Shown here: positions 1 to 43,817 of the stretch, piece after piece | Layout: the number at the start of each line of letters is the position of its first letter | Position numbering within the stretch: the first letter of the stretch is position 1 | Origin: a virus | Strand: one strand, 5' to 3' | Virus record (IMG/VR): IMGVR_UViG_3300045988_058353 | DNA length: 43,817 nucleotides | Notes under the pieces: model-generated | The model's input: only the letters and a program-made list of their open reading frames with translations | Told to the model about the DNA's origin: nothing | The model's database searches: none | Made by a program: the position numbers and the translations under genes

Positions 1-55
1 TAAATAAAAAGTGCTTGACAAAGCCATGACAATGATGTAAGATTATATCAACAAA
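1..55. repeat. Window-end redundancy: identical to 43763-43817. Indicates a circular or permuted assembly with a 43762-bp unit.
   Basis: TAAATAAAAAGTGCTTGACAAAGCCATGACAATGATGTAAGATTATATCAACAAA is present at both ends. Confidence 0.9.
15..43 (+). promoter_or_regulatory. Host sigma70-type early promoter P_B (same copy as 43777-43805)
   Basis: TTGACA (15-20), 17-nt spacer AAGCCATGACAATGATG, then TAAGAT (38-43). An A-rich tract lies upstream. The spacer contains a CATGACA operator-like half-site. Confidence 0.7.
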
Positions 56-76
56 ACACAAAGGGAGGAAAACATA

Positions 77-568
77 ATGGAATTTAGAGTATTTATCACA
101 AACTTAGGCAAGTATAACGAGGGTGAACTCGTAGGCAAGTGGCTTGACCTGCCGTGTGCAGACCTTGAAGCTGAACTCGCTGAAATCGGCGTTGCTCCTG
201 GTACTCAGTACGAGGAATACTTCATCACTGACTATGAAAATGAAGTAGGCTACGAGGTAGGCGAATATGAGAACGTGTGGGAACTGAATGAGCTGGCAGA
301 ACGCCTTGATGGTGTACGTGATGTTGACTGGCTGCTTGCTTACATGGATGTTACCGGTGAAGAACTTGACACAGCTATTGACAACTACGAGGAACGCAGC
401 AGCTTTTATCCTGGGCAGACCTTAGAAGATGTTGCCTATGATTTGGTAAATGATTGCTATAATCTGCCCGAAATCGCATTACGCTACTTTGACTATGAAG
501 CGTTCGCACGTGACCTGGGATATGATGGCTACACTGAAACAGATGACGGCGTAATTTGTGTTTGCTAG
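77..568 (+). CDS. ardA: ArdA-family antirestriction protein; occupies the position of T7 gene 0.3
   Basis: GGGAGG lies 8 nt upstream of the ATG. The N-terminus FITNLGKYNEGELVGKW matches the remembered ArdA N-terminal signature (Tn916 Orf18-type YIANLGKYNEGELVG). The protein is very acidic and is the first gene after the early promoters. Confidence 0.85.
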   Translation: MEFRVFITNLGKYNEGELVGKWLDLPCADLEAELAEIGVAPGTQYEEYFITDYENEVGYEVGEYENVWELNELAERLDGVRDVDWLLAYMDVTGEELDTAIDNYEERSSFYPGQTLEDVAYDLVNDCYNLPEIALRYFDYEAFARDLGYDGYTETDDGVICVC

Positions 569-578
569 TTTGTGTAAA

Positions 579-610
579 CTTGCAGGGCATGAAATATCGT
601 GCCTTGCAGG
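579..610 (+). promoter_or_regulatory. Conserved early-leader RNA hairpin, copy 1
   Basis: CTTGCAGGGCATG / loop AAATAT / CGTGCCTTGCAGG gives a 13-bp stem including G-U pairs, so it folds only as + strand RNA. It is paralogous to 1432-1465. Confidence 0.55.
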
Positions 611-657
611 AGCTACACAAAAAGCTCAGACCAACAAAAGAACTAGGAGGAATCAAC

Positions 658-1416
658 ATGACCAACAACTACAATTTGAAACCACAAAGCGAAATCAAGG
701 ACTTCTCAGACCGCATTATTGAACTTGAAGATTTGTACCGCCGTACCAATGACAAAATTTTCGCCGTACACGCAAAGAAAATCGAGTTGCCTGCATTTGT
801 TACTATCCAATCTAAAGACAAGCGCCGTGCGTATGGCTGGTGCTACATCGTACCGAACTGGGTAGCTAGTGACGGCGAAACACGCATGGCGTATGAAATC
901 AACATCGCTGCTGAAACCCTGGGTAGACCTCTTGAAGAAACCTACGTTACCTTAGTGCATGAAATGGTACACCTCTATAATTGTCAAGAGGGTATCAAGG
1001 ACACGGCAGCACGCTCAGACCGCCACAATAAAAAATTCGGTGCTAGGTGTGACCTTATCGGTCTTGCAAACAAAGCTGATGATTATTTGGGCTGGACTAC
1101 ACATTGCCCATGGTCTGAATCAAGTGAAGAACTTCATGAACTTCTTGAAACCTACAAGCAAGAGGGTAGACCGGAACTGTTGCAAGTGAACCGCATGGAC
1201 GAAAAAGGTGTCATCTGGAAACCTGGCAAGGGTGAAAATGGTGGCAATGGTGAAGAGGGTGCAGGTGGTGAAACTAAACCGAAAAAGAAAAAGTCTAATC
1301 AAATCAAGTATGTATGCCCTCATTGTGGTGCGTCAGTCAGAGCTACAAGAAAAGTCAATGTAATGTGTGCTGACTGTGTGGAAATGATGCTGCCAGAGAA
1401 CCAGGACGAAGATTAA
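658..1416 (+). CDS. SprT-like zinc metallopeptidase domain protein with C-terminal zinc ribbon
   Basis: The ATG is preceded by TAGGAGGAATCAAC. It has an HExxH motif (TLVHEMVHLYN), a Gly/Lys-rich linker, and a C-terminal CPHCG...CADC ribbon. The track start at 556 was rejected because it runs through the intergenic hairpin and has no SD. Confidence 0.55.
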   Translation: MTNNYNLKPQSEIKDFSDRIIELEDLYRRTNDKIFAVHAKKIELPAFVTIQSKDKRRAYGWCYIVPNWVASDGETRMAYEINIAAETLGRPLEETYVTLVHEMVHLYNCQEGIKDTAARSDRHNKKFGARCDLIGLANKADDYLGWTTHCPWSESSEELHELLETYKQEGRPELLQVNRMDEKGVIWKPGKGENGGNGEEGAGGETKPKKKKSNQIKYVCPHCGASVRATRKVNVMCADCVEMMLPENQDED

Positions 1417-1431
1417 TAAACATTGTGTTAG

Positions 1432-1465
1432 CTTGCAGGGTACTACAAAGCTAGTGCCTTGCAGG
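1432..1465 (+). promoter_or_regulatory. Conserved early-leader RNA hairpin, copy 2
   Basis: CTTGCAGGGTACTA / loop CAAAGC / TAGTGCCTTGCAGG. The stem base is the same as copy 1, and the stem top shows compensatory changes. Confidence 0.55.
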
Positions 1466-1489
1466 GTGGACACAATAGGACACTAAAAG

Positions 1490-1507
1490 TTGAGTATTAA
1501 TACTCAA
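1490..1507. repeat. 18-bp palindrome TTGAGTATTAATACTCAA, copy 1 of 8
   Basis: Perfect palindrome, intergenic. Confidence 0.9.
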
Positions 1508-1531
1508 TAAGATAACAAGGAGGAATAAAAG

Positions 1532-1903
1532 GTGTTGTTTGAAATGTACGAAACATACCACGAAAAGGTTAGTCCCGATACTTACAAAGGTTCTTTAATT
1601 ACAAATTGTGATGACCTTATCCATGCTATCGAGGATGCAGCAGGTTATGAAATGGCTGATTTGGTGGTGAAGTATCTGAACAAGGTGGAACGCCAGGCAC
1701 AAGAAAAGATTGATGCAAAAATGGAAGAAGCAGAGCATGATGCAACAGAGGCAGAAGAAGCTAAATATGCTTTACATGAAATGGAACGTGCTTTATATGA
1801 TGTAGCGTGTGATTTTGGTGACATTCTTGCAAGAGAGCGCCTTAATCGTGACAAGTTGCACAAAGTCTTTAGAAAATTAATGGATATTTACTGGAAGCGT
1901 TAA
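1532..1903 (+). CDS. Hypothetical acidic early protein
   Basis: GTG start 8 nt after AAGGAGG. No family recognised. Confidence 0.55.
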   Translation: MLFEMYETYHEKVSPDTYKGSLITNCDDLIHAIEDAAGYEMADLVVKYLNKVERQAQEKIDAKMEEAEHDATEAEEAKYALHEMERALYDVACDFGDILARERLNRDKLHKVFRKLMDIYWKR

Positions 1904-1909
1904 ATGTAA

Positions 1910-1927
1910 TTGAGTATTAATACTCGA
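1910..1927. repeat. 18-bp palindrome, copy 2 (TTGAGTATTAATACTCGA, one mismatch)
   Basis: Lies immediately after the stop of the 1532-1903 ORF and is followed by TTTTC. Confidence 0.85.
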
Positions 1928-1932
1928 TTTTC

Positions 1933-1956
1933 TAACTGACACACGTATAGGAGAAC
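1933..1956 (+). promoter_or_regulatory. Phage-RNAP promoter, variant copy, upstream of the antirepressor and RNAP genes
   Basis: TAACTGACACACGTATAGGAGAAC. It shares ACTGACACACG-ATAG with the other copies, and its 3' half resembles T7 CACTATAGGGAGA. It is embedded in a 7-bp inverted repeat, ACACACG (1939-1945) / CGTGTGT (1961-1967). Confidence 0.6.
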
Positions 1957-2029
1957 AAAGCGTGTGTGATACATAAATAAAGTTGCACACGTTGAGTTCT
2001 CTAAATAAAAATCCTTAGGAGGAAACAAA

Positions 2030-2764
2030 ATGGAAAACAAGCAAGTACAAGTATTTAACAATGTGGAGTTCGGTGACGTTCGTGTCATCATGCAGGGTGA
2101 ACAGCCGTGGTTCGTGGGCAAGGATGTGGCTAGTGCGCTGGGTTATGGTGACACAGCGCAAGCTATCAGAAAGCGTGTTGAGAATGAAGATAAAGAGGTT
2201 GTCGAATTGACCACCCCCGGAGGAAAACAGAGAGCTATTATCATCAACGAATCTGGTTTGTATTCTTTCATTCTGTCCAGCAAGCTCCCTAGTGCTAAAC
2301 AGTTCAAACATTGGGTAACATCTGAAATTCTCCCGACGATTCGCCAACATGGTGCATATTTAACGCCGGAGAAAGTCGAAGAAGTGTTGATGAATCCAGA
2401 TACAATCATCAAGCTGGCTACTCAATTAAAGGCAGAACGTGAAGGACGTATCAAGGCAGAAACAGCATTAAAAGCAGCTACACCGAAAGTAGAATACTAT
2501 GATGAATATATGAATCGTGAAGAAACCTTTACTGTGACTTTCGTGGCGAACACATTGGCAATGGGACAACATCAGCTCTATAAGAAACTTAGAGAAATCG
2601 GATGGCTGTGCAAGCCTTATGGATGTTCACACCAAGTAACAGAAGATGCTCCCGAGGATGTGTTTAAAATCGTGCCTGTATTACATACTGGTGGCGGTAA
2701 AGGCTCTCAAATCCGTGTGACTGCCAAAGGTATGAAGAAGATTCAATCCTTGTTTGACAAATAG
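2030..2764 (+). CDS. Bro-N / KilAC-type phage antirepressor
   Basis: AGGAGG SD. The N-terminal region is Bro-N-like (VFNNVEFGDVRVI...PWFVGKDVASALGY...ESGLYSFILSSKLPSAKQFKHWVTSEILPTIRQHGAY). The C-terminal half is KilAC/antirepressor-like. Confidence 0.75.
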   Translation: MENKQVQVFNNVEFGDVRVIMQGEQPWFVGKDVASALGYGDTAQAIRKRVENEDKEVVELTTPGGKQRAIIINESGLYSFILSSKLPSAKQFKHWVTSEILPTIRQHGAYLTPEKVEEVLMNPDTIIKLATQLKAEREGRIKAETALKAATPKVEYYDEYMNREETFTVTFVANTLAMGQHQLYKKLREIGWLCKPYGCSHQVTEDAPEDVFKIVPVLHTGGGKGSQIRVTAKGMKKIQSLFDK

Positions 2765-2782
2765 CGAACAGTAGTTTATACT
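2754..2782 (+). promoter_or_regulatory. Near-consensus sigma70 promoter directly upstream of the RNAP gene
   Basis: TTGACA (2754-2759), 17-nt spacer, TATACT (2777-2782). The -35 element lies in the last codons of the antirepressor gene. Confidence 0.6.
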
Positions 2783-2800
2783 AATGTTCACAATAACAAA

Positions 2801-2849
2801 CAGCCTTTTGCTTTAAAAATCCCTTTAGCAAGGGGCTGTATTTCTTATA
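2801..2849 (+). terminator. Terminator/attenuator-like hairpin in the RNAP leader
   Basis: CAGCCTTTTGCT (2801-2812) pairs with AGCAAGGGGCTG (2827-2838): 12 bp including two G-U pairs, with a 14-nt loop, followed by TATTTCTTATA. It sits between the sigma70 promoter and the RNAP SD. Confidence 0.45.
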
Positions 2850-2873
2850 CCCAAAATCAAGGAGGAAACACAA

Positions 2874-5432
2874 ATGTACAACCTGGAAGAATATGAAAAC
2901 CAATATGGCAAAATGTTTGTTCGTCAGCTTGAAATCGAAGAAGGTTACAAGCAGCTTGCAGCAGAAGCAACTAGCAAGACATATGAGAACGTAGAAAATT
3001 CTACGATGCAAGATGACGTTGCAAGCCAGACCAAGGCAGGACAGAAGTTCATTGCTGCTCAATGGGCACACGTCAACAACGCTATGACGCTGTTTGTGAA
3101 TAGCTGCTTGCAACCTAAAAAGGGTTCTAAAGCAAGCTATGTGCTGTTGGTGCAGGAAATTGAAAAGGTTTGTGGTAAAGAAAACATGGTTAACCTGTTC
3201 ACTCTGACCACGTTTACAACGCTGCTGAATGGTGTGTTGAAGAAAAAGACATCTCGTAGCACATTTGCCAAGAATATCAGTGATGAACTCTATTATGAAA
3301 TTAGCTTGCAAGCCTTTTTGAGTCAATCTGACTTTGCAGAAGTCATCAAAGAGGGTATCAAAAAGCGTGTGGGTATCTCCTATAAACGTGCCTATGTACG
3401 TGCTTGCATGGAACAAGGACAATATACCTACCATGAGTGGGACAAGGAACAACGCTTGACGCTGGCTACATCCTTAATGGAAGTTGTGTTAGCAGCAAGT
3501 AACTACTTTGAAACCACATCTGTGAACGGACTTACCGAGATTATCCCTAGTCAATTCCTTATTGACCAATGGCAGACCAAAACACAATGGCTCATTGATA
3601 ACAGCTACAAGTTCTGCCCCTGTGTGATTCCACCAAGAGAGTGGCAGAGTGTAACCGAGGGTGGATATTATGGCGAACTTGCCAATCAGACCAAGTTGCT
3701 GCGCTTGCGTGATAATCGTGATGTGTTCGCTAAACACTACTTTGCAAAGCTGGCTCAATTAGAACTTACTGATGTTCGCAAGGCTGTGAACGCTGTGCAG
3801 AACACACCCTGGAAGATAAACACAAGAGTCCTGGACGTTCTGAAACACGTGGTTGATATGGGTGGCGATATGGCAGGTATTCCGGCTGTGTATGAAGCAA
3901 CTAAACCCGAGGTGTTACCAGAGAACCCCACGGAAGAACAATTAAAAGTCTATAAAAAGCGTATGGTAGGCTTTTATAAACTTGAAACACGTAGAAAGTC
4001 TATCCTGCTGCGTATCTTATCACACCTCAGAACCGCTGAGAAGTTCGCTAAATACCCAAGAATATATTTTCCTTGTAACATGGATTTTCGTGGCAGAATT
4101 TATCCTGTTCCTGTGTTCTCGTTTCAAGGTGATGATGTCAACAAGTCGCTGATTGAGTTCGCAGATGCTCCAGCTTGTCAAGATGAAAACTGTTGGGACT
4201 GGTTGTTAATCGAAGGTGCAAACCTCGCAGGAGTTGACAAGGTGAGCTACGATGACCGCAAGGCGTGGGTAGCAGAGAACGAAGCACAAATCATGGCTGT
4301 TGTCAATAATCCTAAAGGTGAATTATGGTGGGCAAACCAAGATTCCCCATGTCAATTCTTAGCGTGGTGCTTTGAATATGCACGTGCGAAAGAGTGGAAG
4401 AACACACATAATGATTCCATAGTAGGTTTTGTGTGTGGCTTGAATATCGCTTTTGACGGAACGTGCTCTGGCTTGCAGCATTTTTCAGCGATACTGCGTG
4501 ACCCTGTAGGTGGTCAAGCTGTTAACCTTATTCCTGGTGATAAACCTAGCGATATTTATGGTATCGTAGCTGAAAAGGTTAACAAGGTGCTTGAAAAAGA
4601 TATGCTGAGCGGAACACAAGATGAAGAAGCTACCGACAAGCAAGGCAGAACGTACACCAAGCACGGAACACGTAGCTTGTCAAGCATTTGGTTAGCTTTT
4701 GGCGTGACTCGTAAAGTAACCAAGCGTAGCGTAATGACTCTTGCATATGGCTCTAAAGAGTACGGATTCCGTGACCAGATTTTAGAGGACACAATCAAAC
4801 CCGATGTAAACTTGAATGGTGAGAAGTCTGTGTTTGCAGGATGTGACTTTCAAGCAGCAGGTTATCTTGCTAAGCTCATTTGGGAAGCGGTAGGAACTAC
4901 TGTAATTGCTGCTGTTGAGGGCATGAAGTGGTTACAGACCTGTGCAAGAAAAGTAACCAAACATGACCAGGTTGTGTCCTGGACTACACCTATGGGACTG
5001 CCTGTGCAGCAAGCCTACATGAAGCAGGAAGTGCAAACCATCTTCACTCGCTGTGCAGGTAAGCAGATTCGCTTGTATAGTGCAGAGAATACCGGAGTAA
5101 TCGACAACAGAAGTCAAGCGTCTGGTATTGCTCCTAACTTTATTCATAGCATGGATGCAGCACATTTACAGTTGACAATTTGTAATTGTTATGATATGGG
5201 GATTCGTCATTATGCTATGATTCACGATTCCTATGGTGCGCCATTAGCACAAGCACAACTCATGTATGATACAGTACGTGAGAGCTTTATTCAGATGTAT
5301 ACTGATAACGATGTATTTCAGAATTTTCTGGATGATATGGAACTTCTTGCTGACGAGAAATTACCGAAGATTCCGAAAAAAGGAACACTTGATATTAATG
5401 TTGTTAGAGATTCGAAGTACATTTTCTGTTAA
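2874..5432 (+). CDS. T7-like single-subunit DNA-dependent RNA polymerase
   Basis: 852 aa with GGAGG SD. Motifs DFRGRIYP, FDGTCSGLQHFSAILRD, MTLAYGS, IAPNFIHSMDAAH and MIHDSYG are co-linear with T7 gp1. Confidence 0.95.
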   Translation: MYNLEEYENQYGKMFVRQLEIEEGYKQLAAEATSKTYENVENSTMQDDVASQTKAGQKFIAAQWAHVNNAMTLFVNSCLQPKKGSKASYVLLVQEIEKVCGKENMVNLFTLTTFTTLLNGVLKKKTSRSTFAKNISDELYYEISLQAFLSQSDFAEVIKEGIKKRVGISYKRAYVRACMEQGQYTYHEWDKEQRLTLATSLMEVVLAASNYFETTSVNGLTEIIPSQFLIDQWQTKTQWLIDNSYKFCPCVIPPREWQSVTEGGYYGELANQTKLLRLRDNRDVFAKHYFAKLAQLELTDVRKAVNAVQNTPWKINTRVLDVLKHVVDMGGDMAGIPAVYEATKPEVLPENPTEEQLKVYKKRMVGFYKLETRRKSILLRILSHLRTAEKFAKYPRIYFPCNMDFRGRIYPVPVFSFQGDDVNKSLIEFADAPACQDENCWDWLLIEGANLAGVDKVSYDDRKAWVAENEAQIMAVVNNPKGELWWANQDSPCQFLAWCFEYARAKEWKNTHNDSIVGFVCGLNIAFDGTCSGLQHFSAILRDPVGGQAVNLIPGDKPSDIYGIVAEKVNKVLEKDMLSGTQDEEATDKQGRTYTKHGTRSLSSIWLAFGVTRKVTKRSVMTLAYGSKEYGFRDQILEDTIKPDVNLNGEKSVFAGCDFQAAGYLAKLIWEAVGTTVIAAVEGMKWLQTCARKVTKHDQVVSWTTPMGLPVQQAYMKQEVQTIFTRCAGKQIRLYSAENTGVIDNRSQASGIAPNFIHSMDAAHLQLTICNCYDMGIRHYAMIHDSYGAPLAQAQLMYDTVRESFIQMYTDNDVFQNFLDDMELLADEKLPKIPKKGTLDINVVRDSKYIFC

Positions 5433-5449
5433 CAAATGTCCACTGTATG

Positions 5450-5475
5450 TAACTGACACACGGATAGAAGAAAGA
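5450..5475 (+). promoter_or_regulatory. Phage-RNAP promoter, consensus copy
   Basis: TAACTGACACACGGATAGAAGAAAGA, 18 nt after the RNAP stop. Confidence 0.75.
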
Positions 5476-5576
5476 GAACAATATGTTAACCATAAGATAC
5501 CTATAAGTTAATCTTTTATTGTGTTAATAAAGATAATAACTATAAGTAATCTATAAGTTATCATATTGTTCTCTTT
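5471..5576. repeat. AT-rich element: 15-bp perfect inverted repeat flanking CTATAAGT(T/A)A direct repeats. Candidate origin or RNA-processing hairpin.
   Basis: AAAGAGAACAATATG (5471-5485) pairs with CATATTGTTCTCTTT (5562-5576). Inside are CCATAAGATA, CTATAAGTTA, CTATAAGTAA, CTATAAGTTA and the core TTATTGTGTTAAT. It is paralogous to 19114-19184. Confidence 0.7.
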
Positions 5577-5612
5577 ATGTATTAATCAAAAAGAACTTAG
5601 GAGGATGACAAA

Positions 5613-6599
5613 ATGGATTTAAAAGTCGGTGAAACTTACGTAATGAAAAAAGCAGAAACTAGCTCTGATGGTGGTATCACTTATCTGAAAAAGGGTACTC
5701 ATGTACGCCTGGTGTCTATTGGCAGCAGCCGTGTACTTGTCCAAGACCTTTCTGACGATGCTTTGACGGATGGTATCTGGTCGACGTATGTTGACAACCT
5801 GGTATCACAGGAAGAATATGATGCTCTTGAAGCTGCCGGTGGCGAACCAGAACCTATTCAACTCGAAGAAGGTTCTATCTACGTTATGAAGTATGACGAA
5901 ATTAGTGGGGACGGCAGACGTGTATACCTCAAAAGGGGTGCTCGTGTACGTGTAGAATCTTTTGGTACTTTGAGTGTACTTGTACAAGACCTTTCAGAGG
6001 ATATGGTTGATGATGGTATCTGGATGACCTCTGTGGGTGCTCTGATGCCCTTAGAGGACGCTTTAGAGGTTGGTGCGACTTATTATATGGGCAAGCCAGA
6101 AACTAACACCAGAGGCGACGTTACGTTCCTTAGAAAGGGTGCTATTGTACGTCTGGAAGTATGGGGTAAAGACAGAGTAGTTGTCAAAGATTTGACTGAT
6201 ACAAAAACAGGTGATGGTGTATGGTACACTAATCCGGAATATCTGGTGCCTATTGACAAGCCGGAAGGTAGCATTTCTCGTGAAGAAGCAGAAGCCTCTG
6301 ATAAAAACAGATGCTGTGTCAAAGAAGAAGAGAACAAGTCTATTGCGCCTATCGTACCTCTGGAAGATGTGGTTGTAGTCAAGAATAAACATTATGTATC
6401 TGACCATCAACCGATTGAAACGATGCAAGCAAACATGACCAATGAAGAATTTATCGGATTCCTTAAAGGTAACATTATTAAATATGCGTGCCGTTGCGGT
6501 AAAAAAGATGAGCCGTTGAAGGAAGCTGAGAAGATTAAACAGTACGCTGAGTGGCTTTGTGTTGTCCTCTCTGGTGGCACGATTGACCCTCGTAGCTAA
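5613..6599 (+). CDS. Three tandem ~70-aa repeats fused to a DUF3310-like C-terminal domain
   Basis: AGGAGG SD. Repeats are VGETYVMKK...GTHVRLV...VLVQDLSDD..DGIW, then EGSIYVMKY...GARVRVE...VLVQDLSED..DGIW, then VGATYYMGK...GAIVRLE...VVVKDLTDT..DGVW. The C-terminus FIGFLKGNIIKYACRCGKKD...AEKIKQYAEWL resembles DUF3310. Confidence 0.6.
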   Translation: MDLKVGETYVMKKAETSSDGGITYLKKGTHVRLVSIGSSRVLVQDLSDDALTDGIWSTYVDNLVSQEEYDALEAAGGEPEPIQLEEGSIYVMKYDEISGDGRRVYLKRGARVRVESFGTLSVLVQDLSEDMVDDGIWMTSVGALMPLEDALEVGATYYMGKPETNTRGDVTFLRKGAIVRLEVWGKDRVVVKDLTDTKTGDGVWYTNPEYLVPIDKPEGSISREEAEASDKNRCCVKEEENKSIAPIVPLEDVVVVKNKHYVSDHQPIETMQANMTNEEFIGFLKGNIIKYACRCGKKDEPLKEAEKIKQYAEWLCVVLSGGTIDPRS

Positions 6600-6622
6600 C
6601 TGACACACGGATAGAAGAAAGG
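6597..6622 (+). promoter_or_regulatory. Phage-RNAP promoter, consensus copy
   Basis: TAACTGACACACGGATAGAAGAAAGG. Its TAA is the stop of the upstream gene, and its 3' AAAGGAG serves as the SD for dut. Confidence 0.75.
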
Positions 6623-6635
6623 AGTGCATTAAGAT

Positions 6636-7091
6636 ATGCCAAGAAAAACAACAAGTACAACTTTGAAAATGGGTGTTAAGCTCGTAAATGATTTTGCGAA
6701 GCTCCCACAGAAGGCAAGCGAAGCTGCTGCCTGCTATGACATTGTGTTACCAGATGATGTGTACATTGCTCCACACACAACTAAACTTGTAGGTACAGGT
6801 TTGGTGTTTGATATTCCACAAGGTTATCGTGTGGATGTGTTCCTGCGTAGCTCTGTTGCTGCGAAAACTATGGTACGCCTGGCGAACGCTGTTGGCAAGA
6901 TTGACTGTGACTACACAGGTGAAATCAAGCTGTTGTTGGAGAACACAGGTGGCGTTCCTGTAAGATTCTACCAGGGTGAGCGTGTTGCACAATTTGAAAT
7001 CAATAAGGTTACTGATGTTTCCTTAGAAGAAGTTGATGATGTAAAAGTTACTGAACGTGCTGACGGAGGTTTCGGAAGCACAGGTAAATAA
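6636..7091 (+). CDS. dut: dUTP pyrophosphatase (trimeric dUTPase)
   Basis: Motifs GKIDCDYTGE and C-terminal RADGGFGSTGK. The start could alternatively be the ATG encoding MGVKL 10 codons downstream. Confidence 0.9.
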   Translation: MPRKTTSTTLKMGVKLVNDFAKLPQKASEAAACYDIVLPDDVYIAPHTTKLVGTGLVFDIPQGYRVDVFLRSSVAAKTMVRLANAVGKIDCDYTGEIKLLLENTGGVPVRFYQGERVAQFEINKVTDVSLEEVDDVKVTERADGGFGSTGK

Positions 7092-7109
7092 TCGAGTATT
7101 AATACTCAA
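7092..7109. repeat. 18-bp palindrome, copy 3 (TCGAGTATTAATACTCAA)
   Basis: Lies directly after the dut stop and is followed by TTTG. Confidence 0.85.
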
Positions 7110-7129
7110 TTTGAAATGGAGGAAAACAA

Positions 7130-7564
7130 ATGACAAAATTTAAGTATGGCGATAGAGTTCGCTGCGTGAAGGATGACACCAACGATAGGGTTGTGGGTAA
7201 AGTAGGAACAGTCATTGATTTTCATAGCAAAGAAGTTGTTGGCGTGACTTTTGATGAAGATGTTAATGGACACAGTATGAGTGGTAGAACTTATATAGGT
7301 CATGGCTGGTATCTTAAAGAAAGCGAATTAGAGCTTGTAGATGCAAGTGATACAAAAGTTATCATCACCATTAAAGATAAGACCACTACGGCTAAAATGA
7401 TGGTAGGCAAACACTGTGTTGTAAAAGCGGTTGCTAAATGTTCCCCTAACGATACACTTGACCCTCTGGTTGGCGCACAGATTGCCTTGCAACGCCTTGT
7501 TGAGCAACGTGGCTCTAAATTTGTAGTTAACTCTAAGATGTTTAATGATGTTGAAGTGATTTAA
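7130..7564 (+). CDS. Hypothetical protein
   Basis: GGAGG SD. No confident family assignment. Confidence 0.55.
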   Translation: MTKFKYGDRVRCVKDDTNDRVVGKVGTVIDFHSKEVVGVTFDEDVNGHSMSGRTYIGHGWYLKESELELVDASDTKVIITIKDKTTTAKMMVGKHCVVKAVAKCSPNDTLDPLVGAQIALQRLVEQRGSKFVVNSKMFNDVEVI

Positions 7565-18302: not shown

Positions 18303-19065
18303 TACAGATAAAAACCTAAAGATTCTGATTGATGCAGATATGATTGTGTTCCGTTCCTGTGCTGCCTGTGAAACACCGATTGACTGGGATTGTGACTTAA
18401 CCACACTTCACTGTGAACACGCAGAAGCAGAGAAACTTGTAGATGACACAGTGATTTCCATTGTTGACAAGGTGCTTGACCACTACAAATATGCAGGTGA
18501 GTATGAGATTCTGATGTGTTTTAGCGATAAGGAAAATTTCCGTAAACACATCCTCCCATCCTACAAAGCGAATCGTGTGGGCAAGAGGAAGCCTTTAGGT
18601 TACTCAAAGGTAGTCGAGTGGGTGAAAGATAACTTCACGTGTTATCAGAAGCCTACCCTGGAAGCTGATGACTGCATTGGTATCCTTGCAACGCTAAATC
18701 CTAACAGCTCTATTATTGTGAGTGATGATAAGGACTTCAAGAGTATTCCAGGATGCTTCTATAACTTTCTCAGTGATACCTATTATGAAATCAGTGAAGA
18801 AGAAGCAGATTATAATCATTTGTTCCAAACACTCATTGGTGATACTGCTGACAACTACAAAGGTTGCCCTGGTATTGGTGCTGTGACTGCTAAGAAAATT
18901 CTTGATGCTGACCCTACCTGGGAAGCACTTGTTGCTCAATTTGTCAAGAAGAAATTGACTGAATCTGATGCGCTTTTGCAGGCACGTGTTGCCAGGATTC
19001 TGCGTAAAAGTGATTACGATTTCAAAACACACAAGCCTATTCTGTGGTCACCGAAGTCTAACTGA
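18289..19065 (+). CDS. T7 gp6-like 5'-3' exonuclease (FEN family)
   Basis: Acidic clusters LIDADMIVFR, EADDCIG, SDDKDF and GDTADNYKG, plus synteny. Confidence 0.85.
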   Translation: MLLFDTDKNLKILIDADMIVFRSCAACETPIDWDCDLTTLHCEHAEAEKLVDDTVISIVDKVLDHYKYAGEYEILMCFSDKENFRKHILPSYKANRVGKRKPLGYSKVVEWVKDNFTCYQKPTLEADDCIGILATLNPNSSIIVSDDKDFKSIPGCFYNFLSDTYYEISEEEADYNHLFQTLIGDTADNYKGCPGIGAVTAKKILDADPTWEALVAQFVKKKLTESDALLQARVARILRKSDYDFKTHKPILWSPKSN

Positions 19066-19082
19066 CACACATATAACCAAAG
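19059..19082 (+). promoter_or_regulatory. Degenerate phage-promoter copy
   Basis: TAACTGACACACATATAACCAAAG. The upstream half is conserved and the initiation half diverges. Confidence 0.4.
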
Positions 19083-19086
19083 TGTC

Positions 19087-19112
19087 TTACTGACACACGG
19101 ATAGAAGAAAGG
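19087..19112 (+). promoter_or_regulatory. Phage-RNAP promoter, consensus copy (head of the structural operon)
   Basis: TTACTGACACACGGATAGAAGAAAGG. Confidence 0.75.
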
Positions 19113-19113
19113 A

Positions 19114-19184
19114 AACCATAAGTAACTTATAGTTATCGTTATTGTGTTAATTATAAATAACTATCTATAAGTTACCTAATGGTT
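19114..19184. repeat. AT-rich inverted-repeat element paralogous to 5471-5576
   Basis: AACCATAAGTAACTTATAG (19114-19132) faces CTATAAGTTACCTAATGGTT (19165-19184). The central core is TTATTGTGTTAAT...ATAACTAT. Confidence 0.7.
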
Positions 19185-19198
19185 AAGGTTATGGAACA

Positions 19199-40103: not shown

Positions 40104-40127
40104 TTACTGACACACAAATATACAATC
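40104..40127 (+). promoter_or_regulatory. Degenerate phage-promoter copy
   Basis: TTACTGACACACAAATATACAATC. Confidence 0.35.
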
Positions 40128-40130
40128 TCC

Positions 40131-40156
40131 TTACTGACACACGTATAGAAGAAAGC
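40131..40156 (+). promoter_or_regulatory. Phage-RNAP promoter (phi-OR-like position after the terminase gene)
   Basis: TTACTGACACACGTATAGAAGAAAGC. Confidence 0.7.
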
Positions 40157-40341
40157 TCCAGAAGGTTATATAATGTTACTTCATGTTCCCTCGGAGAGAT
40201 GATTCATGAACGTAGTTATTATTATCACTTTCATGTTACCTCTGAAATCTTATATTTAATTATAATTATTATAACCATAGATACATTCAGAAAGACATAC
40301 AGAAAGCTTATTCTTCTTATGATTATTACTTAGACCTCGGT

Positions 40342-40383
40342 AAGATGTATACCCTAGTTCCTCCCTCCTAAGGTATACTTCTT
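40342..40383 (+). other. Hairpin in an AT-rich non-coding stretch
   Basis: AAGATGTATACC pairs with GGTATACTTCTT (one mismatch). The 18-nt loop is CTAGTTCCTCCCTCCTAA. There is no clean U-tract. Confidence 0.35.
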
Positions 40384-40431
40384 ACTGTTATTTATAAATA
40401 GAATTATTAAAGAAAGAGAAGGTGATTAATA

Positions 40432-40617
40432 ATGGAAGATGCGAAGGTAAAGTTACGAACCTTCTATCTCACTTACCAGAAGTACATCAGCCTTACCTTT
40501 AGTTTAATCACTGTGGCTTTCTTTTATGCCCTTCACCGAGGGGACTTAAAGTACCTCGTTGAAATACTAAAGGTAGCACAAACCCTAATCCAAATCCTGT
40601 GTGGTACTGCTGCATGA
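40432..40617 (+). CDS. Small membrane protein
   Basis: AGAAGGTG SD. One TMD (ISLTFSLITVAFFYAL). Confidence 0.4.
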   Translation: MEDAKVKLRTFYLTYQKYISLTFSLITVAFFYALHRGDLKYLVEILKVAQTLIQILCGTAA

Positions 40618-41099
40618 TAAACAAAAAGATAACAGTGAGTCTACTAGCCGGTGTGTTGATTGGCTGTGTTTTAGCCAACACATACATCTCGGTCAGACGT
40701 GCAGGGAACACAGAAGTCCACACGCAGGAAACATCTAAAATCACCACCGAATCCACTCTCAAAGTGACCACTAAGACCACCAAGAGTGACCCGGATTTGG
40801 TTGTGTCTAATAGGTACGTGGCGAAGATTGATGGTAAGTATGTGGAAGCTCCCTTAAAGACCACAAAAGACACATCCACTGCTGTTGTGTCTACCACTAT
40901 CGACGTGACACCACTTGTTAAACAGATGACCCCTAAATGGGAAGCAGGTATTGGTGTAGGATGTGTTGATAAAAAATTACTGCCCTGTGTTAGCTTGCAG
41001 AGAAACTACAAGCAAGACAAGGCAGTCGAAGCAGTAATACAGATGGATACACAAGGACACTTCAAAGGTGCTAGTGTCATCCATAAGTGGCGATTTTAA
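40614..41099 (+). CDS. Putative lipoprotein
   Basis: ATGA overlap with the previous gene. Signal-like MINKKITVSLLAGVLIGC with a lipobox-like LIGC. The mature part is Thr/Lys-rich and ends ...HKWRF. Confidence 0.45.
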   Translation: MINKKITVSLLAGVLIGCVLANTYISVRRAGNTEVHTQETSKITTESTLKVTTKTTKSDPDLVVSNRYVAKIDGKYVEAPLKTTKDTSTAVVSTTIDVTPLVKQMTPKWEAGIGVGCVDKKLLPCVSLQRNYKQDKAVEAVIQMDTQGHFKGASVIHKWRF

Positions 41100-41140
41100 A
41101 TCGTTGTGTGATTTTAATTTGTAAGGATGTGTGATAAAAT

Positions 41141-41332
41141 ATGAAGGAAAATGATTGTGTTCCTTCTTTCTACACACCGAAGGAAGTGGCTGCCATTCTG
41201 AGATTCAAGAAGGTAGACCAGGTGTATGCCCTGTGTCACAGCAGGGTCATACCCTCTTTCCAACTCGGTAGGAACTGGCTGATACCTAAAGACAGATTCC
41301 ATGTGTGGTTAGAAGAACAGATAAATGGTTAA
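41141..41332 (+). CDS. xis: Excisionase-family (MerR-like HTH) DNA-binding protein
   Basis: YTPKEVAAILRFKKVDQVYALCHSRVIPSFQLGRNWLIPKDRFHVWL fits the excisionase/HTH_17 pattern. It is adjacent to int. Confidence 0.65.
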   Translation: MKENDCVPSFYTPKEVAAILRFKKVDQVYALCHSRVIPSFQLGRNWLIPKDRFHVWLEEQING

Positions 41333-41593: not shown

Positions 41594-42775
41594 TTACTTG
41601 GTGCAGTCCATGAGATTAGCAGCTAATTGGTGTTGTTTCTTGATGGTGTGTGCATACACATCAAAGGTGATAGACACACTTGAATGACCTAAGCGTTCAC
41701 TAACAGTTTTGTAATCGTTACCGGATAGTTCAATAAGTTTCGTTGCATTTGTGTGCCTTAGGGAGTGAAACGTGAAGTGCCTGGTAATACCTGCTTTTAA
41801 TAAATATCTTTGAAAACACGCTCGAAGCGTACCTCCTGCTAAAATTTTAGTGCCATTGAAATCCTTAGAGAATACATAATCATCCTTGTCTGAGAACTGG
41901 AAGGATGCTTTGTGTTTTGTAAGAATTTCAATCAGACCCTCTGAGATAACTATAAGGCGATTAGAAGATGCTGTTTTTGGTGTTGAATCCACAATACCTT
42001 TCGACAGGGTGACACGTTGATTATCTACATGAATAGTGTGATTCTTAAAATCAACACGTGACCACCTTAACCCTAAGATTTCACCGATACGCATTCCTGT
42101 TTCATATGCTATCATAAAGGCAACATAGAGTAGAGATGCAGCATCTGGTTTGTGTTGTGGTTTTTCTTCTAATCTCGTATCATAAGCAGCTTTCAGAACC
42201 CCTCTGAGAGCTTCAAATTCGCCTTCTGAGAGGACTTCTATGTCACTCTTAGGGAACTTAGTAGCCACCCATAAACAGCCTTCTGTGGGACTTGTAGAAA
42301 TGATTTTGAGCACTCTGATAGCATAGTTGAATACAATACGTATCAGAGTTAGATAGGCTCTTATAGAGCGTTCTGCTTTGTGTTGTTTACGCATTGCTGT
42401 GATGAACTCATCAATATCCTTTGTGGTAATCTTTGAGATGGTCTTTGTGGCAAGATAAGGAGCAATTACCTTTAGGTGATTTTGGTAGTGGTAGAGTGTT
42501 GTTTCCTTGACATTGGAGCGTGACTGCTTGTACTCAATGTAGTTCTTAGCAAGTGCTTCAAAGGTCATGTTCATACTTACTGCTACATCTGCTTCATCAC
42601 GGAGCTTCATGAAACCACGAAGTAACACACGTGCTTCTGTAAGGCTATCTGCTGTTCCAGAGAGCTGCTTGCGTTTACCATTGACGTAGCCACAGTCGAG
42701 CCTTATGCGATACTTATTGTTATCCAGTTTGGTTATAGAACCTTCACCTTTTGTTCTTCTACGTTTTGTTGACAT
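41594..42775 (-). CDS. int: Tyrosine recombinase / phage integrase
   Basis: AGGAGG SD. C-terminal catalytic region ...GMRIGEILGLRW...HSLRHTNATKLI...LGHSSVSITFDVYAH. Confidence 0.95.
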   Translation of the reverse strand: MSTKRRRTKGEGSITKLDNNKYRIRLDCGYVNGKRKQLSGTADSLTEARVLLRGFMKLRDEADVAVSMNMTFEALAKNYIEYKQSRSNVKETTLYHYQNHLKVIAPYLATKTISKITTKDIDEFITAMRKQHKAERSIRAYLTLIRIVFNYAIRVLKIISTSPTEGCLWVATKFPKSDIEVLSEGEFEALRGVLKAAYDTRLEEKPQHKPDAASLLYVAFMIAYETGMRIGEILGLRWSRVDFKNHTIHVDNQRVTLSKGIVDSTPKTASSNRLIVISEGLIEILTKHKASFQFSDKDDYVFSKDFNGTKILAGGTLRACFQRYLLKAGITRHFTFHSLRHTNATKLIELSGNDYKTVSERLGHSSVSITFDVYAHTIKKQHQLAANLMDCTK

Positions 42776-43369: not shown

Positions 43370-43537
43370 TTAAAAATCTATAGTTTTTCTTGTTAACCAC
43401 TTTTCAATCATTTGTCTTAATAATTCACTTGAATTTATAGAACGCTCTTTACACGCTCTTTGAAACTCTTCTTTTAGTTCCTTATCTAATCTTATTTGAA
43501 TTACTACTCTTTTATTATTTTCATCTGTAAAAGTCAT
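43370..43537 (-). CDS. Ribbon-helix-helix (CopG/Arc-type) DNA-binding protein; candidate immunity repressor (55 aa, not in the ORF track)
   Basis: AGGAGGTG SD. In MTFTDENNKRVVIQIRLDKELKEEFQRACKERSINSSELLRQMIEKWLTRKTIDF, a beta strand (VVIQIRL) is followed by two helices, as in RHH proteins. Confidence 0.6.
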   Translation of the reverse strand: MTFTDENNKRVVIQIRLDKELKEEFQRACKERSINSSELLRQMIEKWLTRKTIDF

Positions 43538-43557
43538 CTTTTTCACCTCCTAAAAAT

Positions 43558-43586
43558 AGTATAGCATATTGTCATGACAAAAGCAA
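43558..43586 (-). promoter_or_regulatory. Promoter of the RHH gene with an embedded 12-bp palindromic operator
   Basis: On the minus strand: TTGCTT (43586-43581), 17 nt, TATACT (43563-43558). The spacer contains the perfect palindrome TTGTCATGACAA (43569-43580). Confidence 0.6.
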
Positions 43587-43626
43587 TCCATTTATTTTCT
43601 AATTGCCATTATATGAAGAAAAGCGA

Positions 43627-43644
43627 TTGAGTATTAATACTCAA
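43627..43644. repeat. 18-bp palindrome, copy 8 (perfect)
   Basis: Lies between the divergent RHH and early promoters and is followed by AAATTTTTT. Confidence 0.9.
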
Positions 43645-43663
43645 AAATTTTTTCAAAAAGTGC

Positions 43664-43692
43664 TTGACATCGTCATGACACTAGTGTATTAT
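43664..43692 (+). promoter_or_regulatory. Host sigma70-type early promoter P_A
   Basis: TTGACA (43664-43669), 17-nt spacer TCGTCATGACACTAGTG, TATTAT (43687-43692). It has the same AAAAAGTGCTTGACA upstream context as P_B. GTCATGAC lies in the spacer. Confidence 0.7.
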
Positions 43693-43706
43693 AATAACCA
43701 ACAGAG

Positions 43707-43724
43707 GTCATGACGCAACATGAC
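43707..43724. promoter_or_regulatory. Operator-like sites downstream of P_A
   Basis: GTCATGAC (43707-43714) and CATGAC (43719-43724). Confidence 0.5.
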
Positions 43725-43762
43725 GCGAAAGAGGGAAACAAAATGAGTAAATGAAAAAAAAA

Positions 43763-43817
43763 TAAATAAAAAGTGCTTGACAAAGCCATGACAATGATGT
43801 AAGATTATATCAACAAA
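43763..43817. repeat. Second copy of the window-end redundancy (equals 1-55, includes P_B)
   Basis: Identical to bases 1-55. Confidence 0.9.

Follow-up and report, generated by a model that had tools for sequence, protein, structure and literature searches.

Phages of the T7 type were long considered strictly lytic, and how the temperate ones silence a powerful RNA polymerase (RNAP) is an open question. The present analysis concerns the region upstream of the single-subunit RNAP gene in the IMG/VR virus record IMGVR_UViG_3300045988_058353, a stretch of 43,817 nucleotides (nt) referred to below as the window, where a promoter of the phage's own type at position 1933 (P1933) is followed by an antirepressor gene and then by the RNAP gene. 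In T7, as in the window, a single-subunit RNAP is paired with promoters of about 23 bp, host RNAP transcribes the early genes from strong sigma70 promoters, these genes are set apart by hairpins, a promoter lies immediately after the RNAP gene, and transcripts from phage promoters carry 5' stem-loops (T7 phi10). Unlike the window phage, T7 is strictly lytic, and its gene 1 has a single phage promoter before it, the weak and distant phiOL, placed near the left end of the T7 map. The preliminary description of this DNA, in which T7 was said to have no phage promoter before gene 1, was thus too strong. A T7 promoter directly before gene 1 is, to our knowledge, found only as an engineered construct that needs tight extra control; such a T7 autogene was reportedly engineered by Dubendorff and Studier (1991).

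A natural precedent is phage LUZ100 of Pseudomonas, in which the promoter phi1, mapped by transcript sequencing, immediately precedes the RNAP gene (Putzeys et al. 2023, PMC10134795). In the positive-feedback model proposed for this phage, read-through of host RNAP past a terminator gives the first phage RNAP, which then amplifies its own synthesis (PMC10134795). Like the window, LUZ100 is a T7-like phage of temperate type with an integrase and a phage-type promoter before the RNAP gene, and the same feedback model can be drawn for both. In LUZ100 a MarR-like regulator is encoded, for which sites on both sides of the promoter have been proposed. In the window, by contrast, neither the scanned proteins nor the unassigned open reading frames (ORFs) of the lysogeny and early regions included a MarR gene, and a ribbon-helix-helix (RHH) protein is encoded instead, with palindromes at the early promoters only. 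A further difference is that in the window promoter and RNAP gene are separated by an antirepressor gene, a second promoter of host type that carries a LexA-like box, and a hairpin. The two RNAPs share about 34% identity, the host of the window phage is probably one of the gut Negativicutes, and the LUZ100 promoter is known from transcripts while that of the window is known here from sequence alone. With phiOL present in T7 and phi1 as a mapped precedent, the novelty first attributed to the arrangement relative to T7 does not hold.

A second group of described systems joins prophage induction to the SOS response. A promoter of the Bacillus thuringiensis phage GIL01 is repressed directly by the LexA protein of the host, which acts at CGAAC(n)4GTTCG, the Gram-positive LexA box, and LexA-controlled antirepressors are known from the Gifsy phages and from coliphage 186 (Tum). 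GIL01 resembles the window in having a Gram-positive-type SOS box at the phage promoter of the lytic decision, with weak half-site boxes beside a stronger one, and the Gifsy and 186 Tum systems resemble it in having an antirepressor within the induction circuit. These systems guard a lytic operon or an antirepressor, whereas in the window the candidate guarded gene is that of the phage RNAP, and its box, predicted from the sequence, is degenerate.

Six members of a phage-type promoter family were found in the window, all on the + strand (1933, 5450, 6597, 9117, 19087 and 40131), with the consensus TAACTGACACACG[G/T]ATAG[A/G]AGAA. From shuffled sequences 0 matches were expected by chance, and a search of the - strand of the window gave no copy. 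P1933 (TAACTGACACACGTATAGGAGAAC, 1933-1956, + strand) is identical to the consensus from -17 to -5 and deviates from it at -4 (T), +2 (G) and +7 (C); its +1 is predicted at G1950 by analogy with T7, where TATA is followed by the initiating G. The reference copy of the consensus promoter (5450-5473, + strand) is located immediately 3' of the RNAP gene. P1933 lies 941 nt upstream of the RNAP gene on the same strand, the cognate single-subunit RNAP being encoded in the same genome. In all likelihood P1933 is a genuine promoter of that RNAP.

The RNAP gene (2874-5432, + strand) was identified by its Pfam matches to RNA_pol (5.7e-106) and RPOL_N (2874-5429). Its best tblastn matches were Autographiviridae RNAPs with 34-42% identity, the closest RNAPs of cultured phages not exceeding 42%, and megablast of region 1400-5600 against GenBank phages gave zero matches. 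The intervening gene (2030-2764, + strand) matched Pfam Bro-N (92.8 bits) and ANT (51.2 bits; 2030-2761), both above the curated cut-offs, as well as PHROG 130, anti-repressor Ant (3.6e-69), by which its product is a predicted Bro-N + KilAC (ANT) antirepressor. The gene order read in the preliminary description, a variant phage promoter followed on the same strand by a Bro/KilAC antirepressor gene and the RNAP gene, was therefore confirmed by Pfam for both genes.

A search of IMG/VR gave 56 related contigs, whose lineages are referred to by L numbers. A promoter of the phage's own type was found upstream of the RNAP gene in nearly all of the related lineages with a recognisable promoter, despite quite different promoter sequences, and this comparison of upstream regions gave no match on the - strand. 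The distance to the RNAP gene was 126 nt in L029 and in L037, 130 nt in L055, 145 nt in L053, 148 nt in L033 and 77-86 nt in the D/E-group loci L030, L031, L032, L034, L035 and L051; in L049 two tandem copies were located at about 60 and about 31 nt. The promoter was more distant in L048 (931 nt) and L057 (2202 nt), and in L011 it was found 78 nt before the antirepressor gene. The copies upstream of RNAP usually depart from the local consensus in the initiation region, the transcript start often being GGNGAAC.

Natural variants of the window phage bear on the partner of the promoter. Compared with 2017-2873 of the window, L005 and L080 have two copies of AGGAGGAAACA (ribosome-binding-site repeats) from between which the antirepressor cassette is absent, so that palindrome, promoter and leader are joined to the RNAP gene, with the promoter 100 nt before the start codon and no hairpin of the 2800-2850 type. 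In L082 the order is promoter and leader, sigma70 promoter and hairpin, and RNAP, with no antirepressor ORF. The RNAPs of these three variants are 98-99% identical to that of the window where the gene is present. Since L005, L080 and L082 keep promoter and RNAP without the antirepressor, the constant downstream partner of the promoter is the RNAP gene. Given that own-type promoters recur despite sequence change and that the variants keep the pairing of promoter and RNAP gene, a self-transcribed RNAP gene is well supported as an architecture and is concluded to be a selected, conserved feature of the clade, of which the promoter is very probably real and the use is what we infer. The variants, which lack one or two parts of the locus, amount to ready deletion mutants.

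Besides the six promoters, degenerate tandem copies were observed at 19059-19082 (TAACTGACACACATATAACC) and 40104-40127 (TTACTGACACACAAATATAC), 27-28 nt upstream of the real promoters 19087 and 40131, with the binding region intact and the initiation region changed; L049 has tandem copies too. These could be decoys, recruiting sites or A-start promoters. Promoters 5450 and 19087 are followed by AT-rich regions with ATAAGT/CTATAAG repeats (5470-5575 and 19110-19185), each enclosed by a long inverted repeat, the first being AGAGAACAATATG...CATATTGTTCTCT. By comparison with T7 phi1.1A/B, these regions are possible replication origins.

A Bro-N/ANT gene directly upstream of RNAP was found by Pfam in the window, L011, L048 and L057, and the L006, L013 and L015 types have there a gene with matching N-terminal sequence by comparison by eye rather than by Pfam, giving at least seven lineages with an antirepressor in this position. 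Within the Bro-N domain a hypervariable patch was observed (2125-2260, residues about 33-77), which is different in each of the window, L001, L003 and L004, with a nucleotide identity of about 50-65% as against about 96% over the remainder of the gene. The patch is independent of the RHH type, since L004 has the RHH protein of the window and a different patch.

The near-consensus sigma70 promoter TTGACA-17-TATACT described between the antirepressor and RNAP genes was found at 2754-2782 (+ strand). It overlaps the end of the antirepressor gene, agrees with the consensus at 11 of 12 positions, and is the best sigma70-type match in 1..7200. In L011 (64% RNAP identity) both hexamers and the 17-nt spacing are identical to those of the window, whereas the flanks have diverged, and the promoter is kept in L082 despite the loss of the antirepressor gene. 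Its spacer is filled by a motif resembling the LexA (Cheo) box, CGAACAGTAGTTTA (2765-2778), which overlaps the -10 hexamer and has 2 mismatches to CGAAC-N4-GTTCG; a half-site TGTTCA is located at 2785-2790 (TGTTCG in L082). When the RNAP-upstream regions of all lineages were set side by side, a CGAACA/TGTTCG motif recurred in or beside the sigma70-type promoter. Of 25 independent sequence clusters, 9 had CGAAC-N4-GTTCG with at most 2 mismatches within 200 nt upstream of RNAP, compared with a background rate of 3.7% of windows (binomial P = 1.6e-7), the consensus being the Gram-positive one, which may not be that of the host. The box is perfect in L014/L018 and has one mismatch in the L006 type and L048, and the boxes of the clade mostly lie in promoter spacers next to the -10 hexamer. 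Their position across the clade suggests an SOS-gated ignition of RNAP synthesis. LexA control of the 2754 promoter itself has, on the sequence, about even odds, and higher ones for the clade as a whole. In the limited set of literature searched, no paper joined LexA, an SOS box and T7-like prophages.

Between this promoter and the RNAP gene, the G-U-containing hairpin with a U-rich tract noted in the preliminary description is likewise present. Its arms are 2800-2812 and 2827-2839 (+ strand), with 13 pairs of which two are G-U, and the U-rich sequence AUUUCUUAUAC, with the tail UAUUUCUUAU, follows within 2800-2850; folded alone the hairpin gave -19.3 kcal/mol (z = -5.05). Since the U-tract is interrupted and the loop large (14 nt), it is much weaker than the clear terminators of this genome, which are located after the capsid gene (U9) and at about 34650, and a terminator scanner flagged its inner 6-pair hairpin only. 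This candidate attenuator before RNAP is, from its sequence, probably a partial one. In L011, 11 of the 13 pairs are kept through one-sided changes and two are broken, so that the comparison of the window lineage with L011 gave zero compensatory pairs. A pattern scan of IMG/VR for further copies of the RNAP leader hairpin returned only contigs that were already known.

A second RNA structure is predicted at the 5' end of the P1933 transcript (1950-2002, + strand). This leader stem-loop begins at the predicted +1 and has 19 pairs (-24.3 kcal/mol, z = -6.5), with an outer stem GGAGAAC x GUUCUCU and an inner stem AGCGUGUGUGAU x GUUGCACACGUU; no shuffled sequence folded as well, and no 5' hairpin was found at the other five promoters of the genome (z -0.95 to +0.33). 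RNAP-proximal promoters of five other lineages also have hairpins (z -6.9 in L057, -6.5 in L037, -6.0 in L029, -4.9 in L033 and -4.7 in L031). In L031, L033 and L037 a U-run follows, as in a promoter-proximal terminator, whereas in the window the following sequence is A-rich. By analogy with T7 phi10, the window stem-loop more likely stabilises the 5' end of the mRNA, or may be a processing site. It contains both a direct and an inverted copy of the promoter core, of 7 and 7 nt in the window (1985-1991) and of 9 and 7 nt in L037 (L037/L053 leaders), while the leader hairpins of seven other lineages contain none, which hints that those of the window and L037 arose from promoter duplications. 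At gathering thresholds Rfam gave no match for the hairpins, which are thus not known RNA families; a single match at chance level had E = 0.016. Over the clade, lineages with the antirepressor gene have a LexA-like box before RNAP, and those without it have a self-promoter and a terminator-like hairpin directly before RNAP.

The stem-loop also accounts for the inverted repeat around P1933, ACACACG (1939-1945)-N15-CGTGTGT (1961-1967), which the preliminary description had taken for an operator at the DNA level that keeps the loop off. The repeat itself is present and exact (1939-1967). Its left arm is the promoter core common to all six promoters and its right arm is part of the leader RNA stem, and among 90-nt segments drawn at random from the window, 4.2% contain 7 nt or more that match this core in inverted orientation. 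As this chance level applies and the right arm belongs to the RNA stem, the 7-bp repeat is probably a by-product of the leader stem-loop, and its reading as a DNA operator or gate is not supported.

The window is a complete T7-like phage genome, assembled as a circle with its first 55 nt recurring at the end, and its + strand carries all long genes. P1933 is preceded by three early genes, encoding ArdA (77-568), a SprT-like protein (658-1416) and an unknown ORF (1532-1903). The lysogeny module includes a tyrosine integrase (41594-42775, - strand), an HTH_17 Xis-like protein (41141-41332) and, as candidate immunity repressor, an RHH (Arc/CopG-like) protein of 58 aa (43370-43546, - strand). The gene of the latter is divergent from the early sigma70-type promoters (43664-43692 and 43777-43805, the second being identical to 15-43; + strand), which lie in region 43570-43805 and bear TGTCATGACA-type palindromes. 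Two relatives with 55-56% RNAP identity are found in Phascolarctobacterium genome contigs, L057 within one of 467 kb; with these prophage relatives and the integrase, Xis-like and RHH genes of the window, the clade is temperate, and its host is probably among the gut Negativicutes. A search at the possible attachment site found no tRNA.

The explanation that we favour, with moderate confidence, is that P1933 would transcribe the antirepressor gene and, by read-through, the RNAP gene in a self-amplifying manner, with ignition from host-type promoters and with an attenuator hairpin. The P1933 transcript would start at about G1950, carry the stable 5' stem-loop and encode the antirepressor; read-through of the 2800-2839 hairpin would give RNAP mRNA, and the RNAP would amplify its own synthesis along with that of the antirepressor and would also fire the other five promoters. 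The first RNAP mRNA would be made by host RNAP in one of two ways. Transcription from the operator-bearing early promoters (43664, 43777) could read through to the gene if the RHH repressor is missing or has been inactivated, or transcription could begin at the 2754-2782 promoter once its repressor, probably LexA, is removed, in which case the LexA-box-like motif in the spacer would tie ignition to the SOS response. The hairpin would pass only a fraction of the transcripts, so that the gain of the loop would be low in lysogens. The positive-feedback loop of RNAP and antirepressor put forward in the preliminary description is thus borne out as an architecture and matches the LUZ100 model, but the inverted repeat as its gate is not. 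Better candidates for keeping the loop off in lysogens are control of the early promoters, through the CATGACA palindromes beside the RHH gene, and control of the 2754 promoter, through the LexA-like motif, to which the hairpin would add attenuation. A broader proposal can be made only tentatively. In this clade of temperate T7-like phages of gut Firmicutes and Negativicutes, lysogeny might be kept mainly by silencing RNAP: LexA on the host-type promoter would be released by DNA damage, the RNAP would fire the variant promoter to give antirepressor and more RNAP, and the leader hairpin would set the threshold. If true, this would be an SOS-triggered, self-amplifying, all-or-none induction switch that needs no autocleavable phage repressor.

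Several observations weigh against these proposals. The 13-pair hairpin with its U-rich tail lies between P1933 and RNAP and could stop most transcripts. No upstream promoter was found in group H (L038, L041, L042 and L056) or in some members of group G. The P1933 site is unchanged in close relatives, but as these are 98-99% identical in RNAP, conservation within this lineage says little; in a search for covariation in the leader stem-loop among metagenome variants, the sequences were too similar and the changes mixed (two pair-improving, two pair-breaking and none compensatory). L005, L080 and L082 are short metagenomic contigs, and L005 and L082 could in principle be misassembled. The box in the window is degenerate, with two mismatches (GTTTA) to a Gram-positive consensus that may not match that of a Negativicutes host. 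Over the whole window such boxes are not enriched (3 found, 8.6 expected), and support for the box is positional and comparative only.

The most probable of the rival explanations makes P1933 the first of the middle-class promoters, with the antirepressor as the one gene that it serves; the 2800-2839 hairpin would be an efficient terminator, and RNAP would be made from host-type promoters alone, with no feedback. The stability of this hairpin (z = -5.05) and the UAUUUCUUAU that follows agree with it, as do the U-tailed hairpins after the antirepressor gene in L048 and L057 and the conserved sigma70-type promoter right at the RNAP gene. That sigma70 promoter is, however, upstream of the same hairpin, and a full terminator would silence it too; with its interrupted U-tract and 14-nt loop the hairpin is far weaker than the clear terminators of the genome. 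In L005/L080 promoter and leader abut RNAP with no hairpin between them, L082 is without an antirepressor gene, and in about ten other lineages an own-type promoter directly precedes RNAP. We regard transcription of the antirepressor gene alone as unlikely.

In another explanation P1933 would be a weak promoter like T7 phiOL, serving genome entry, replication or processing, with the hairpins as RNase III-type sites like T7 R1. T7 phiOL, at the left end, is thought to aid RNAP-driven genome entry, the early intergenic regions of the window all bear long G-U hairpins (569-620 and 1422-1476) like T7 RNase III sites, and in groups M and N the sole promoter-like sites upstream of RNAP are 2.7-4.1 kb away from it. 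P1933, however, is located after three early genes and away from the genome end; in many lineages the promoter is tightly coupled to the start codon of RNAP or of the antirepressor (30-150 nt), and the leader stem has the predicted +1 as its first base, as would be expected at the 5' end of an mRNA. A role of this kind is considered very unlikely. An operator in the inverted repeat, bound by a repressor that shuts the phage promoter in lysogens, is highly improbable. The repeat exists and is unique to P1933, the other five promoters reaching an inverted match of 4-5 nt only; MarR sites flanking the RNAP-proximal promoter were proposed in LUZ100-type phages, and the L037 leader also has a promoter-core copy and its inverse. 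The chance level of 4.2% is nevertheless per promoter, the left arm is invariant promoter core, and the right arm is fully explained by the 19-pair RNA stem-loop (z = -6.5). No second copy of the operator was found, nor a MarR gene in the protein sets named above, and the promoters of seven other lineages have no repeat resembling ACACACG-N15-CGTGTGT. The RHH-linked palindromes TGTCATGACA are confined to 43570-43793 and no repressor-type operator motif was seen near 1933; gating of P1933 or of the 2754 promoter by this palindrome was rejected on the same restriction.

The immunity regions of near-identical phages (L013 and L052 included in the comparison) were observed to differ in the palindromes of the early promoters, which are TGTCATGACA in the window and L004, TCAGAACTTCTGA in L001/L002/L003/L005 and TGACGAAAACGTCA in the L010 type, suggesting different immunity types on one backbone. 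The phage promoter P40131 is followed by two small ORFs and then by the gene of the HTH_17 Xis-like protein (40131-41332), and excision may therefore be driven by phage RNAP.

A different palindrome, AATTGAGTATTAATACTCGATT (1908-1929) with the core GAGTATTAATACTC (1912-1925), ends 4 nt before P1933. This adjoining copy is kept in all close variants and in L049 (72% RNAP identity), where it is TTGATTATTAATAATCAA, a change that keeps the symmetry. The 14-bp GAGTATTAATACTC was found in 8 copies against 0.2 expected (1492, 1912, 7094, 11282, 15793, 22142, 43131 and 43629), extending to about 20 bp. All are at gene boundaries in the early, middle and late regions, some overlapping the preceding stop codon; where a copy precedes a gene, 15-30 nt separate it from the ribosome-binding site, and one is just upstream of an early promoter. 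Since the outer positions vary in either orientation, the palindrome is argued to be a DNA site and not a + strand RNA element, and the copy abutting P1933 could be a regulatory site. Gain or loss of cassettes between short repeats was also observed here, L001/L002 lacking ORF 1532-1903 between two palindrome copies (window 1490-1930).

The long intergenic hairpins at 569-620 and 1422-1476 consist of CTTGCAGGG...GCCTTGCAGG within an outer TTTGTGTA/TACACAAA-type stem. Given their several G-U pairs, they are specific to the + strand RNA. Their form is like that of the sites at which RNase III processes the T7 transcript between early genes, and the same element is present in L049.

The feedback architecture as such is already known; possibly new are the comparative pattern across the clade, the dedicated leader hairpins and the LexA-like gate. 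The locus offers a compact and testable layout, in which a self-promoter with a special 5' stem-loop, an antirepressor gene, a promoter of host type bearing a LexA-like box, and a hairpin resembling an attenuator follow one another. If confirmed, it would carry the LUZ100 feedback model over to a large clade of uncultured gut phages, would connect the induction of T7-type prophages directly to the SOS response, and would supply synthetic circuits with orthogonal pairs of RNAP and promoter whose gain control is built in.

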